Assembly (NCBI RefSeq): GCF_036321535.1
Contig: NC_087436.1
Location: 76,386,001-76,450,000, forward strand
From: Camelus dromedarius
Lineage: Eukaryota
Length of the DNA: 64,000 nt
Direction of reading: 5' to 3'
This document shows positions 451 to 44,300 of this stretch, one piece after another. Each line of letters starts with the position of its first letter. The stretch's first letter is position 1. The notes beneath the pieces were generated by a model, which made no database searches, was not told the DNA's origin, and was given only the letters and a program-made list of their open reading frames with translations. Made by a program: the position numbers and the translations under genes.

Positions 451-1771
451 GAATGAAATTAGAACATTCTCCAACACCATATAGAAAAATAAACTCCAAT
501 ATAAATTATAGCAATATTTATTTGCATCTGTTTCCTAAAAAAAGTAAATAAAAGCAAAAATAAACAAATGGGACCTAATTAGACTTAAAAGCTTTCACAC
601 AGCAAAGGAAATAATCAACAAAATGAAAATACAGCCTACTGAATGGAAGAAAATATTTGTAAATGATATGACTGATGAAGGGTTAATGTCCAACATATAT
701 AAAACAGCTCATACAACTCAACATCAAGAAAACAAACAACCTGATTAAAAGATGAGTGGGAGAACTGGATAGACATGTTTCCAAAGAGGAAATGCAGATG
801 GCCAACAGGCACATAAGATGCTCAACATTGCTAATCATCAGGGAAATGCAAATCAGAACCACAATGAATTATCACCTCACACCTGTCAGAATGGCTATAA
901 TCAAAAAGAAAAGAAATAATAAACATTGGCAAGGATGTGGAGAAAAGGGAACCCTTGTACATCATTGGTGGGAATATAAATTGGTGCTGCCACTGTGTGA
1001 AACAGCACTGAGGTTTCTTAAAAAACTAAAAATAGAGCTACAATATGATCCAGCAATTCCACTTCTGGCTATATATCTGAAAAAACAAAAACAAAAACAA
1101 AAACAAAAACACTAATTCAAAAAGATACATGTACCCCAGTGTTCACAGAAGCATTATTTACAAAAGCCCAGATATTGAAACAACCTTAGTATCCATCAAC
1201 AGATGAATGGATAAAGATGATGTGGTATATAGGTATATATGTATGTATGTATATAGGTGTATGTGTGTGTGTGTATATATATACACACACATACACATAT
1301 ACACAATGAAATACTACTCAGCCATAAAAAGGAATGGAATTTTGCCATTTGCAGCAGCATTGATGAACTTGGAGGGCATTATGCTAAGTGAAGTAAGTCA
1401 GACAGAGAAAGACAATGTATGATGTCACTTATATGTGGAATGTAAAAAATACAACAAACTAGTGAATAAAATGAAAAGGAAGCAGACTCACAGATACAGA
1501 GAACAAGCTAGTGGTTACTAGTGGGGAGAGGAAATGGGAGGGGTGAGATGGGGTAAGGGAGTAACAGGTAGACACTATTAGGTATAAAATAAACTACAAG
1601 GACATATTATACAACATGGGGAATATAGCTCATATTTAATAATAACTATAAATGGAGTATAACCTTTAAAAGTTGTGAATCACTATATTATTGTACATCT
1701 GTAACTTATACAATATTGGACATCAACTATACTTCAGTTAAAAAAATAATAAGTAAATAAATTTGAAAAAA
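451..1771 (+). mobile_element. L1 ORF2 C-terminus, 3' UTR and A-rich tail (cetartiodactyl-type)
   Basis: Peptides [29 protein letters not shown]. 3' UTR ends catcaactatacttcagttaaaaaaa. Internal CAAAAA and TA/TG/CA microsatellites. Confidence 0.93.
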
Positions 1772-37749: not shown

Positions 37750-39449
37750 AATGATAGCAGAGATGGATGGTTAAGGAGCTTTTCATTTGGGTATGGGGGG
37801 AATGGAACTTAGAGTGGAGAGAACTTTTGGTCCTGAAATGACAAACTGTGTTCAGGCAACCATAAATAATTTGATGGTGTCAAGGGCATGGGGACAGGAG
37901 TAGACGGAAGAAGATAATTAGAAGAAACAAAACTGGAGAGTATACAAGGAGGATCTTTCTTTTCAGAAAACTATTTTTTTACCTGTAGGTGCTAGGAGTC
38001 ATTGAATAATTTTAGGCAGTGCTGTAACACGATCAGATTTGTCTTTTAGATAATTCATTCTCTGGTAGAATAACATTAGGAGGCTAATTATGGAAGCAGA
38101 AATTTGGTCAGGATGTATTGAAAAAATTCAGGCAAGAGGTTATGTGGACCATAATTAGGACAGAGGCAATAAGAATGACAGACAAAGTTTGCATCTAAGA
38201 GAGAACTGCCAAGTTTTTGATGACTAGTCAGTAATGGTTCTTAAAGAAGAGAGGCTTTCAGGTGACAATAATGCATAACATTTTGCACATGTTGAGTGTG
38301 TAGCTGAGATGTCTAGTAGGCAATTAGATACATCAGTTTTGTATTAAAAATGAAAATGTTAGTTCAAATAGTAGGAGTTTGAGATCCTAAGTACAGAAGA
38401 CATAGAGTAAGAGAAGAAGAGAGCAGAAGACAAACTCTTAATTAAACCTCAGCTCAATTGATTGTGTATACAGAAGGGACTTTAGTGGAGAAAGTTCAGG
38501 ATATTTGGAGATGCAGAAAGAGAAGCATAAAGAATTGACAATGAAAAATCAGCTTAAAACAACCCAATTATTTTCTCACAGTTTTTGTGACTCAGGAATA
38601 TGAACTTTGCTTATCTGGATCTTCTTTGTGGGGTCTTGCAAGGTTGCTGTCAAACTGTCAGCCAGAACTGGGTTTCATATGAAAGCTCAACTGGGGAAGA
38701 TTTCACTTCTAAGCTCACATGGTTGTTGGCAGGATTTAGTTTCTCATGGGTTGTTGGAATGAGGATCTCAGTTCCTTTTTGACTGTTAGCCAGAAGCCAC
38801 TCTCAGTTCCTTGCCACATGGGCCTCTTTAACTTTGCTGCTTATTTCATCAAATCATGGAAGCCAGAAAAGCAATAGAGAGAGTTTGCTAGCAAGACAGA
38901 AGGCACAGTCTTTTGAAACCTAATTATAAAAGTGACATCCTATCACCTTTGCAGCATTCTGTTGGGTAGAAGAATGTCATTCTTAGAGGAAGGGCATGAA
39001 TACCAGAAGGGCATGAATACACAAGGGCATAAATACCAGAAAGTGGGGATCATTGGGGGTGGGGCATCTTACAAGTCTGTTTACCACAGTTGATGACCTT
39101 TTCCAGGAAAGTGTTTAGAAGAGTTTCAGTGGAATAGTAGGAGCAGAAACTGGTTCCCAGTGGTTGAGAAACAGATGTCAAATAAGCAAGTGGAGTTTTC
39201 TGTAGACAACTACCTTAAGAATCCTAACTGAGAAAGGAAGGGGAAAGTTGGGAGCCTGGAAAAAGGAAAGGCTTTCTAAGGATGGGAGAGAACTGAGCAG
39301 GTCTACAAGATGAGGGGAAGGAACCACTGGGAAGAGACGGAGAAGAAAGAGAGAAGAGGAGGGGATAACTGATAGAGCACATTACTTGAGAGAGTATATA
39401 GGATGTGACTCACAGCTCAGAAAAGGAGAAGGGTTAGCAATAAACAGTA
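37750..39449 (-). mobile_element. L2 (left part of the element hosting the retrocopy), interrupted by MLT1
   Basis: gatcagatttgtcttttagataattcattctctgg, ttttgcacatgttgagtgtg, gagtttcagtggaatagtaggagcagaaac. Confidence 0.7.
38545..39089 (-). mobile_element. MLT1 (F/G-like) MaLR LTR
   Basis: gcttaaaacaacccaattattttctcacagttt...aagctcacatggttgttggcaggatttagtttctc...gtctgtttaccaca. Confidence 0.85.
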
Positions 39450-39549
39450 AAGGAACATCTTTTCTTTCTTTCTTTTTAAAATGTAAGCATTATTTTATTT
39501 TTATAACTTGTCATTTCTATAATTTAAAATTTATTTAAGCCTTTAAACA

Positions 39550-40751
39550 TTTTTAAATTGAAATAATTATGGATACATAGTAAATTGCAAAAAAAAAAAT
39601 TGTGCAGAGAGATTCTGTGGATCCTTCACCCAGTTTCCCCCAATTATACCATCCTATATAACTAGAATATAATATATCAAAACCAGGAAACTGACATTGA
39701 TACAATCAGAGATTACTCAGATTTTGCCAGTTTTGCACTGCAATCATTTGTGAGTATGTGCATGTATGTGTGAGTGTGTGTAGTTCTATACAATGTTGTC
39801 ACATGTGAAGATTCAGGTAACTGCAACCACAAACAAGATACATCACTGTCCCACTACAAGACTTCCACCTGCTGTCCATTAGACCTACCCACCCACCCCA
39901 ACCCCCAACTCTTGGCAACCAGTAATCTATTCTCCATGTCTATAGTTTTGTTATTCCAAGAGGGTTATACAATGGAATCATGTAATATCTAACTTTTTGA
40001 GATTAACTTTTTTTCATTTAGCCTAATTGCTTTGAGATTCTTTGAAACTGTATCAATAGTTCTTTCCTTTTTATTGCTAAATAGTATTCCACAGTATGGA
40101 TGTGGACCAATTTTTTTAACCATCAACTTTTTGAAGGACATCTAAGTTTTCCCCAATTTTTGGCTATTCTAAATAGATCAGCTATGAACATTTATGTACA
40201 GGTTTTTGTGTGAACATAGGTTTTCATTTCTCTGGAATAAATACCCAAGAGTGCTATTGCTAGGGTTCCATGGCAAGTTTAGTTTAGTTTTGCTTTTGCT
40301 TTTTTTTAAAACAAATTTTAAAGCTGTCCTCCAGACTGGGTCTACCATTTTACATTTCCACAAGCAATGTATAAGTAATCTAGGTTTTTCAAATCTTCAC
40401 CAGAATTTGGTGTTGTCATTATTTTTTATATTAGTTTTTTCTTATAGATGTCCAGTGATATTTCATCATAGTTTTAATTTCATGTTGCTAAAAGCTAATG
40501 AAGCTGAGCATCTTTTCATGTGTTTATTTGTCATCAGAACATCCTGTTGAAATGTCAAATCTTTTACCAATTTTCTGACTGAATTTTTTTTAATTTTTGT
40601 TTTTTCTTTTTTATTCTTGAGTTTTGAGGGTTCTTTATATATTCTAAATGTAATATATTTGCTGGATATGTGGCTTACAGTCTCTCCAAGTCTGTAGCTT
40701 GTCTTTTCATCCACTTTGTAGGGTCTTTCACAGAACAAATGATTTTAATTT
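39550..40751 (-). mobile_element. Old L1 (L1MB7/8-like) ORF2 end and 3' UTR, carried inside the retrocopy
   Basis: Diagnostic 3' UTR ccttcacccagtttccccc...atatcaaaaccaggaaactgacattgatac. ORF track remnants TNKHMKRCSASL and WKCKMVDPVWRT. Confidence 0.85.
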
Positions 40752-40940
40752 GCTTTCCCCTAATATCAGTGATGGCAAGAATGTCTTCTCTCACCATTTA
40801 TATTCGACACAACACTTGAAGTTCCAGGTAGTACAATAAGACCAGAAAAAGAAATGAGAGGCAAACTATTGGAAAGGAAGAGATAAGTCTGCCCTTACTT
40901 GCACATAGAACGATCATCTATGTAGGAAGTCCCAAGGAAT
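40752..40940 (+). mobile_element. Old L1 ORF2 (RT region) fragment, antisense to the retrocopy
   Basis: Degenerate match to the L1 RT segment from GCPLSPLLFNIVLEVLA to the FADD region and YVENPK (ggcaagaatgtcttctctcaccatttatattcgacacaacacttgaagttcc...gatcatctatgtaggaagtcccaaggaat). Confidence 0.85.
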
Positions 40941-42090
40941 TGGGAAGTTCTTTTCAATGGCACAGAACACAACATCCATACAGAGGAACACCCCTGTCCG
41001 GCCCACACAAGCACTACAGTGAACAAGGATGGGTTCCTGTAAGGTGGCTCTTCCTCACATAACGAACATACTTTATGAAACCTTCTGCTGAGGCAGGAAT
41101 GCCGTGGTCTGGCCAAATGGTGAACTGCAAGTGTTTTACAAAGTGACTAGTTCCTGTGGACTTCTGACAACTTGAAATATTCAAACAACAAAACTCTGAA
41201 GTATCTGGTAGTTCTCCAGGAAGACATGACAGCTTTTCAATTCCAAAGGCTTTTTCATAGAAATGGGCCAGTAATGGTGGCATTTCATAACTCCATCTTC
41301 TACCTCTCTGGTTATGATGACAATAACATTAGAGTTATTTTCCACAACCATTTGCCAAAAATCATCTGTGGTGCCTGGCAGTGGTCCTTGGGTAGCGATA
41401 TAGTTATACTCTTCTCCAGAATGGACTATTTTAATATAACTAGCATTGATGTAGTCCTTGTTTTCTCCAGGAAGAACACGTGTTGAAACATATGAAAGAG
41501 TATCTTGATATCTGTTTTTGTCTCTGTCATGTAGTTCATTCCCAGAGTTGAACACAGCAGGCAGATTCTTAGATCCCAAAGCCATAAATTCCTGGATGAT
41601 TTCAAATTCTGATACTTTTCTCTCAAGCATTTAAAAATAATCCTTCATGGTTGAATTCTCATGAATACTGAATGTTAATGGTCTAACCAGAGCCAACTGA
41701 GCTAGCTCCATTTCGGAAACAATTTCCATCCCTGAGACGTAGGGGAGTCAGTCGGGGAAGGCCCTGTGAACTCCTCCTCACTGCTGGACCTGTCTTTTTG
41801 GAAGGAGCTGCTGGTCATTGACAAGCTGGGGTTACTGTCATTTTCTGTATCCTCAAATCCTCAAAATCATCATTTTGTTGGAAATCCTGAAGAAAGACTT
41901 TTACCTTCTCTAAGTTAACTTCACTTTCCAAAATCTCAGAGCTCACTGATCTAGGTGTCATGTCCTGACTTGATGAAGGCAAATCTTCCTGATCTGATGA
42001 AAGCACAGATGGATCCAGGTTTTTCATGTCAGAGTCCTCTCCCTTCTGACCTTTTCCAGACTCTGCTGTGGCATTCTTGGGTGAAGACAT
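40941..42090 (-). pseudogene. PTPN20: PTPN20-homologous coding portion, disabled
   Basis: ATG at 42090. Frameshifts near 41855, 41738, 41165 and 41034. In-frame stops TAA 41633-41631 and TGA 41183-41181. Homology ends at ...AIEKNFP (40941). Confidence 0.92.
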
Positions 42091-42603
42091 GTTGTCCCCA
42101 TGTCTGGAGGACGTGAGCAGGTTTCTGCAGGTGCTGGGCCTTATGTTCTGAGAGTCAGGCAGCAGGTCTAATTAGTATCCTGGGGCCAGCACACAACTGT
42201 TGTTCACCAACAGTCACTAATTTCAAATCTTCCATGAAAGTCAGCAGAACTCCCAGAGCAAACAGCTTTGATCAGAAACGCATGTCCATTTCTGGTGTGT
42301 CCGTTAGTGCAGTGAATTTGAGATAATCCTTAGATCTTTAGATTCTGTAGATTTCCATTTCATCAGATCCGGTAAGAGTCAATTATGAAGCTGTATATGA
42401 GATAAAGTTCATCTACCAATAAGTAATGTAACCACACTGGGAGCCAGACTTCCAAGTAGCTGCAAACTGTGGTGGACTTTGGTTTGATTGGAGAACATGT
42501 CACAGGAGACAATACTGACTGGCGGTAAATGTCAGTCTGGACCTGCCGCATCCAGCCTCACCCGAACCGCCCCACCACCAACAGCCAAGAAACATCTTTT
42601 CTT

Positions 42604-43255: not shown

Positions 43256-44300
43256 TCTTGACATCCTCCAGCTTTCTTACTCTGTTACCTCAATCAACTA
43301 CTACTCTAATAAAACAAAGTACACACTAATTGCTTGTACAATTCATGAGATAAAGTTTATCTACCAATAAGTAAAGGAATTTTTTGGAAGGTGCAGGTAT
43401 CATAAAAATCAGGTTACCTGAATGTCCTTAAATGTGAGACAATCTCAGGGTAAGGGGAAATTAGATATTTCCTGGGTGATGCTCTAAGAGGGCCAACCAG
43501 CTTGCCATGATATATGTGAACTAATAGTTTAACTCATTATAACAACCCTTTGCCTATTGTCACTTAGGCATGGTTGAGTGTTCTAGCCTAGTCTAGGACA
43601 CAACAAGAAGGGGACGTGAGTAGGGTAGTTTTGATTTTTAATAGATTAGGAAGAAAGGTTAGGATAATTGAAAGATGCTAAATGAAAATATAGAGAACTT
43701 TACAATCCAGGTTTCTGAGAGGCTAGTTTAAATTTGCATTAGCCTACATTTAAGTAGCAGCTGTTTGAGCTTTCATTTTCTGTAAGTGGGCTGGACTGCT
43801 TGGTGGCAGGTCAAAATTGTAAATAGCAAGCCTGCACCTCCAACTACTTTAAGGCTGCCAGGGACTGAATGCTTAATTTATGATTAACGCATGATTAAGT
43901 GTTAAATGGCAGTCAGAGAGACTTTCTGAGATTATCTGATTAGCTTTTAGCACCCAGAGATCTCTTCTCAGTGGAATTTGTGCTCTATAATTAAGGCCTA
44001 GTAATATAAATATCTAAGAGAGAATTTTGATTCATGTACCAACAACACACTCAACACACTCACAGAAGGTAAGTTATCAGAAAGCATTTAAGAAAGGATT
44101 TGAGATTTTGAGTATCTAGTGAGTTTTTTTAATGAAAAACTCATTATATAAAATTTAATGTCTGAATTTTGGGCTACATGAAAAATTTCATTTTGTTGCT
44201 TTGAAAAGTAAAATACTAATATGCATTTGATTATTTAAAAATTATTGGTTTTAAATAGATGTATTTTTATGCCTTGCTCAGGTCACTACTGAGCTATTCT

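Follow-up and report, generated by a model that had tools for sequence, protein, structure and literature searches.

A stretch of 64,000 nucleotides of dromedary DNA, hereafter the window, carries on its minus strand a PTPN20-like coding sequence that breaks off after the catalytic motif of the phosphatase and continues into L1 sequence. This raises the question of where the join was made: in an mRNA spliced into an L1 of the parental gene, during reverse transcription, or after insertion of the copy. The elements of the locus, in the direction of the copied mRNA, are as follows.

42587..42603, minus strand: 5' copy of the target-site duplication, 16/17 nt identical to 39450-39466
42115..42586, minus strand: likely PTPN20 mRNA 5' UTR, GC-rich at its start, flanked by the duplication and the coding homology
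40941..42114, minus strand: PTPN20 coding homology, intronless and disabled, corresponding to residues 1-394 of alpaca isoform X9
40914..40940, minus strand: L1-derived tail IPWDFLHR and stop, 8/8 residues identical to the end of XP_072799782.1
40752..40940, plus strand: L1 ORF2 RT fragment (PDB L1 ORF2p matches), antisense to the mRNA, start of the proposed alternative last exon
39478..40751, minus strand: old L1 ORF2 C-terminus and 3' UTR (ORF2 fragments, nhmmer), rest of the proposed alternative last exon
39494..39499, minus strand: poly(A) signal AATAAA, 16 nt before the A-rich remnant
39467..39477, minus strand: A-rich remnant of the poly(A) tail, 11 nt, seen in the sequence
39450..39466, minus strand: 3' copy of the target-site duplication, 16/17 nt identical to 42587-42603

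About 3.1 kb long, the locus at 42586-39467 on the minus strand is a processed pseudogene, now dead, of the camelid PTPN20 gene. It is colinear with a spliced mRNA, with no intron-sized gap across 397 aligned residues in 1.2 kb. The domain upstream of the junction matches 244 PDB sequences at E ≤ 0.001, which mark it as a tyrosine-phosphatase domain, and its named relatives are PTPN20. Including the tail, 335 of 397 aligned residues are identical to those of alpaca X9 (P0075 = XP_072799782.1). Because four frameshifts (near 41855, 41733, 41164 and 41034) and two in-frame stops (at 41631 and 41181) lie upstream, the retrocopy codes for nothing and cannot itself encode the truncated isoform that it records; the last C of its HCSAC motif is a change from G found in the retrocopy only. 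No host-gene exon was evident, as judged by eye, among the 34 window ORFs of at least 95 aa, and Rfam gave no matches.

Both the PTPN20 part and the L1 part are enclosed by a single target-site duplication with one mismatch, and the extended pair is identical at 21 of 24 nt. Compared with the L1 endonuclease target TT/AAAA, the duplication has a purine-rich start but is preceded by TG, not TT. Later insertion of the L1 into an existing PTPN20 copy was ruled out, because no PTPN20 homology resumes 3' of the L1 and the duplication flanks both parts. At the other end, the first 111 nt of the putative 5' UTR are 55% GC and contain 4 CpG (window CpG observed/expected, 0.13), and by its composition this stretch is likely to lie near the transcription start. 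Two local repeats were observed alongside. Thirty nucleotides within the putative 5' UTR (42397-42426) recur on the same strand with one mismatch at 43345-43374, a flank position some 750 nt beyond the duplication (0/100 shuffles gave any match); this repeat is unexplained, and could be a common old repeat fragment or local templated copying. Directly 3' of the insertion, 38989-39041 holds three tandem units of 16-17 nt, which we take to lie probably inside an LTR-like repeat.

Read on the minus strand, PTPN20 homology runs through VHCSACVGRTG...CAIEKNFP and gives way at 40941/40940 to IPWDFLHR, followed by TGA at 40916-40914, so the sharp switch described in the first-pass annotation of this DNA is borne out by the reading frame. 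Its further claim, that the Q-loop is missing, also held: tblastn with 194 proteins found no PTPN20 homology below 40923, and the segment carrying QTxEQY is absent. The only tblastn matches outside the retrocopy were L1-derived alpaca tails, which fell on an L1 at 812-957.

The sequence after the junction begins with 189 nt of antisense L1 RT sequence, and its earlier assignment to L1 was upheld by a 37-aa piece (40773-40883) with only five PDB matches, all of them L1 ORF2p chains at modest E values of 0.03-0.07, aligned to residues 659-690 in the full-length chains. The frame piece 40832-40939 had no PDB match, and neither piece had a match in Pfam. Among 150 RT-side L1 relatives, most of which stop short of this region of ORF2, none matched the antisense part at E ≤ 1, and the window holds no second RT-region L1 from which the acceptor could be read. 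At 40752/40751 the orientation flips from antisense to sense. In the sense part, 113 of 120 L1 ORF2 fragments match within 40054-40738 (best E 2e-23), nhmmer links 39478-40751 to six further L1 copies in the window, and we assume an L1MC/L1MD-like subfamily. The L1 sequence totals 1.46 kb. Its upstream segment is thus antisense and its 3' end sense, the arrangement that twin priming gives in 5'-inverted L1s as outlined in the available portion of PMC10760644, and we infer that 40752/40751 is the inversion point of the element rather than a second splice junction.

The L1 had been called ancient, and it is older than the retrocopy: its ORF2 part shows 30-53% identity to the best rows of a comparison set that is not subfamily-specific for this L1, and is to be read accordingly, against 85% (322/379) between the PTPN20 part and its parent. 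The poly(A) site had been placed beyond the L1; this part of the first-pass annotation did not stand, as the site is the 3' end of the same L1.

We then surveyed the endings of 362 listed PTPN20-type proteins, a collection that is no census, and set aside 33 without the P-loop motif. The remaining 329 comprised 298 with the canonical continuation and 31 that continue otherwise, namely 12 with a carnivore KFCPP exon, 5 reading on as VS.., 4 partial models ending there, 3 from deer mouse, 1 alpaca model with IPWDFLHR, 1 cattle model with IP-stop and 5 others. Most of these 31 diverge at the residue of the retrocopy junction, the 12 carnivore models (into another exon) and the 5 VS.. models exactly so. 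Since other annotated PTPN20 isoforms part at this same residue, the junction is an exon boundary and splice donor, as the first-pass annotation had proposed. The KFCPP.. exon, presumably of MER5-like origin, follows the same donor in P0018-P0030, P0115 and P0471 (dog, wild dog, jackal, leopard cat, panda); some carnivore KFCPP models run into an L1-derived tail, that of P0026 matching the L1 at 45.2 kb (E 2e-4).

The counterpart is a model of the living gene. RefSeq XP models are translations of the genome at their own locus, usually with RNA support, and alpaca models X1-X12 each come from a 46.9-Mb contig and have neighbouring accessions. Among them, PTPN20-like isoform X9 is identical to X1 and X5 over its first 394 aa, carries the parental FHAIERNFP, and then ends in IPWDFLHR and a stop exactly as the retrocopy does. 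Sharing of both junction and tail implies that the parent gene holds the L1 segment, as the first-pass annotation had predicted, although this indirect view, through the alpaca and deer-mouse protein tails, takes in only 24 nt of coding sequence and some 120 nt of the L1. The tail occurs in 1 of 23 listed camelid-type proteins, a predicted model, and in no Camelus model; the junction motif had no match in metagenome or viral contigs. Part of the retrocopy is held by 20 of 24 listed sequencing runs, 14 of which are DNA-type or unlabelled, with shares of 0.89-0.92 and two organism labels; two RNA-labelled runs of one study, possibly DNA, hold 0.54 and 0.46 of its words, and four more hold small shares; none of these RNA-labelled runs is counted here as evidence of expression.

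Alpaca offers two further observations. A second PTPN20-like locus on another contig (P0083, XP_072796118.1) is near-identical to the parent, but its P-loop reads HCSAR and it has two additional residues at the same junction; it is likely a recent duplicate. Six alpaca models (P0057, P0070, P0076, P0125, P0127 and P0148) end in L1 sequence matching window 812-957, so that L1 accounts for two different endings of this gene.

Endings outside the camelids bear on the age of the intronic L1. Three Peromyscus isoforms, X3, X5 and X1 (P0171, P0402 and P0403), have a terminal tail of 47 aa; across the whole window it matches best at 40743-40624 (E 1e-5, 18/41), beginning within a few bases of the putative L1 inversion point. 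The frameshift-aware score of this match is 74; none of 40 shuffles exceeded 48, and the younger L1 at 45.3 kb reached 38. The deer-mouse tail and the window both have II before CS, a feature of none of 45 ORF2 fragments with the motif (40 have SF), which suggests either the same L1 copy or a trait of an old subfamily. In cattle, Bos indicus x Bos taurus isoform X5 (P0391, XP_027386578.1) ends KNFS-IP-stop; the two residues are suggestive of the acceptor of the camelid tail and, if the site is the same, would date that acceptor to the artiodactyl ancestor. Taken together, these protein endings suggest that one ancient intronic L1 was exonised more than once, at two acceptors.

The age of the retrocopy was estimated from a tree of 21 rows, comprising the retrocopy and 20 proteins chosen by clade, trimmed at the junction. 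The retrocopy is sister to camel plus alpaca, with 100/100 on both branches; it shares 322/379 residues with alpaca and with wild camel, and at most 74% with the others. Camelid-derived residues in 304 informative columns are shared by the retrocopy in 22 cases and not in 15 (0.59; 95% interval 0.42-0.75). The tree and the shared residues therefore place the insertion before the camel-alpaca split and after the split from other even-toed ungulates. In the text available to us, these splits are put at 11 million years from fossils or about 25 from a mitochondrial clock (PMC1939714), and at 55-60 million years (PMC9374477), respectively. Linear interpolation by hand gives the retrocopy an age of roughly 25-45 million years, a soft figure. 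Its own amino-acid changes number 17 (up to 23) in the 304 columns, compared with about 20 in the parent since the split, and branch lengths are 0.081 and 0.09-0.10. This low count (42090-40941) may reflect a younger copy, fast evolution of the parent, or constraint for a time; the six disabling changes fit plain decay. Given the same ending in an alpaca model, the retrocopy likely dates the minor splice form to before the camel-alpaca split.

What such an mRNA would encode can be judged from X9, which keeps the pTyr loop KNRY, the WPD loop and the HCx5R P-loop HCSAGVGR. It covers positions 1-199 of the 234 in Pfam Y_phosphatase, compared with 1-233 in X5, and the residues lost, 395-436, include 14 columns invariant among 50 orthologues. 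In the predicted structure of X5, whose best structural match is PTPN13 (1wch), the lost part comprises a helix at 397-407, the Q-loop and a helix at 415-434, at pLDDT 82-94; a fold predicted for X9 from its sequence alone had a mean pLDDT of 39 and was not informative. In PTP1B, a single Q-loop substitution leaves very low activity, according to the consulted part of PMC9266312. With the Q-loop and two helices gone, the X9-type isoform is likely inactive as a phosphatase, a prediction from sequence and model that supports what the first-pass annotation had supposed.

We consider it probable, at about 80%, that the locus is a retrocopy of a minor PTPN20 splice form whose P-loop exon had been spliced, at a cryptic acceptor, into an old L1 of the intron, likely one with a 5' inversion; the encoded phosphatase is predicted to be inactive and most likely has no selected role. 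Under this reading, an inverted L1 would have landed in the intron after the P-loop exon, probably before the rodent-ungulate split, to judge from the deer-mouse tail. The donor after KNFP would at times have been spliced to a putative acceptor AG in the antisense RT part, yielding IPWDFLHR and a stop, and the transcript would have ended by way of the AATAAA close to the 3' end of the L1 itself. As the duplication, the A-rich remnant and the tree show, one full-length mRNA of this kind was reverse-transcribed and inserted on the camelid stem, likely by L1 machinery in the germ line. The retrocopy has since decayed, and the parent, to judge from one alpaca RefSeq model, likely still makes the isoform. 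Germ-line expression, the origin by inversion, the acceptor AG and escape from nonsense-mediated decay are presumed steps of this scheme.

Two rival accounts concern the making of the join and the survival of the isoform. A single duplication around both parts also fits a join made in reverse transcription, by template switching or twin priming between PTPN20 mRNA and an L1 RNA, or one made by trans-splicing with L1 RNA from an unlinked site, and such chimeras exist, 15 of 17 human cases having no intronic source in the available part of PMC13174262. This origin is nevertheless very improbable here, in keeping with the first-pass annotation, which had ranked a template-switch chimera lower: the alpaca parent model has the same junction and tail, so that an intronic L1 source is present; the L1 was already old and rearranged and not of insertion age; and the same L1 segment contributes to a PTPN20 model in a rodent. 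Alternatively, the isoform could have existed at the time of copying but be extinct now, with X9 a model built from retrocopy reads aligned to the parent locus. The presence of the tail in one model only, together with the two RNA-labelled runs that hold about half of the retrocopy's words, lends this some colour, but the copy is about 15% diverged in protein, enough that reads from it should align where they belong, and X9 carries parental residues up to the junction; we regard such an artefact as improbable.

A different objection to the preferred splice-form reading is that the isoform is functional, a regulated phosphatase-dead PTPN20 that retains the N-terminus, pTyr loop, WPD loop and catalytic cysteine and acts in spermatids as a decoy, substrate trap or dosage brake. 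This one donor repeatedly leads to endings without a Q-loop, in models from alpaca, cattle, deer mouse and carnivores; the tail and its stop are unchanged between retrocopy and alpaca; and a stop in the last exon, being of the kind that escapes nonsense-mediated decay, would spare the transcript. We rejected conservation of the tail as a sign of selection, however, as with an overall identity of 85% all 8 residues would agree by chance with a probability of about 0.27. The tails also vary by lineage in sequence and length (2, 8, 24-50 and 47 aa), folding is doubtful since two core helices are lost, and many further endings in alpaca come from L1s or introns, which is what leaky splicing in testis should produce. 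A function of this sort thus seems unlikely. The same holds for a broader, tentative scenario, in which the post-P-loop intron serves as a recurrent off-switch. A single L1 that predates the divergence of rodents and ungulates would have been exonised in camelids, cattle and deer mice, with two acceptors in use; carnivores would use another exon at the same donor; and the resulting PTPN20 without a Q-loop would be a selected spermatid decoy or substrate trap, kept by camelids since before the camel-alpaca split. Most likely, we infer, the isoform is a tolerated leak of testis splicing with no selected role. PTPN20 is described as heavily spliced and little studied in the portion of PMC9900141 consulted; mouse Ptpn20 is highest in testis, 415-fold above choroid plexus, in the accessible part of PMC9164390; and L1 exonisation and cryptic poly(A) use are released in testis, as reported for sense L1s in excerpts of PMC10901741.

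The locus resembles several known systems, each with differences. With alpaca X9 it shares the donor, the IPWDFLHR tail and the stop, but X9 is a predicted model of a living gene, whereas the retrocopy is an old, disabled genomic copy, and an old genomic copy of an isoform's mRNA sets a minimum age for that isoform. The carnivore KFCPP.. isoforms (dog, African wild dog, leopard cat and giant panda) likewise use this donor and lose the Q-loop, but the exon that they splice in is another one and does not match this L1. Shemesh et al. (2006) reportedly treated L1-mediated processed pseudogenes as archives of transcript isoforms, and retrocopies appear in this role in the available portions of PMC4772013 and PMC5470649. 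Like such pseudogenes, the copy is intronless, flanked by a duplication, has a poly(A) remnant and records a non-canonical splice form; it differs in that the exon on record comes from a transposon and has its match in an extant model from a sister lineage.

Antisense L1 splice acceptors can cause L1 exonisation (PMC2176070), and L1s can act as gene traps providing last exons with cryptic poly(A) sites (PMC10901741), as set out in the parts of these papers available. Host donor, L1 acceptor, premature stop and L1 poly(A) signal are common to those cases and this one, but the elements described there are mostly young or sense L1s in mouse and human, whereas the PTPN20 L1 is old and rearranged; its antisense part would supply the acceptor, its sense part the poly(A) signal. 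In the consulted sections of PMC13174262, mRNA/LINE-1 chimeric insertions (MAP3K13, FHIT and RAP1GDS1-L1PA2, the RAP1GDS1 case arising by cis-splicing to an intronic L1) similarly place spliced host exons and then L1 within one target-site duplication. Those chimeras join first exons to near-full-length, coding, then-active sense L1s, whereas the PTPN20 retrocopy contains almost the whole host mRNA with a dead, partly antisense L1 as passenger.

Neither this copy nor the L1 exon appears in the titles and abstract openings that we covered on PTPN20 splicing, camel and testis, a set with few subscription papers. The processes involved are already described and the isoform is already a database model; the retrocopy is a clean new case of them. 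Without evidence of function, it leaves the general picture unchanged. It does offer a tidy case of how long exonised L1 endings last without evident function, and it marks the post-catalytic intron of PTPN20 as a place where forms without a Q-loop have arisen repeatedly across mammals. Through it, a low-confidence database isoform becomes a dated event: a splice form of transposon origin, presumably present in mRNA of the germ line on the camelid stem and still modelled in alpaca.
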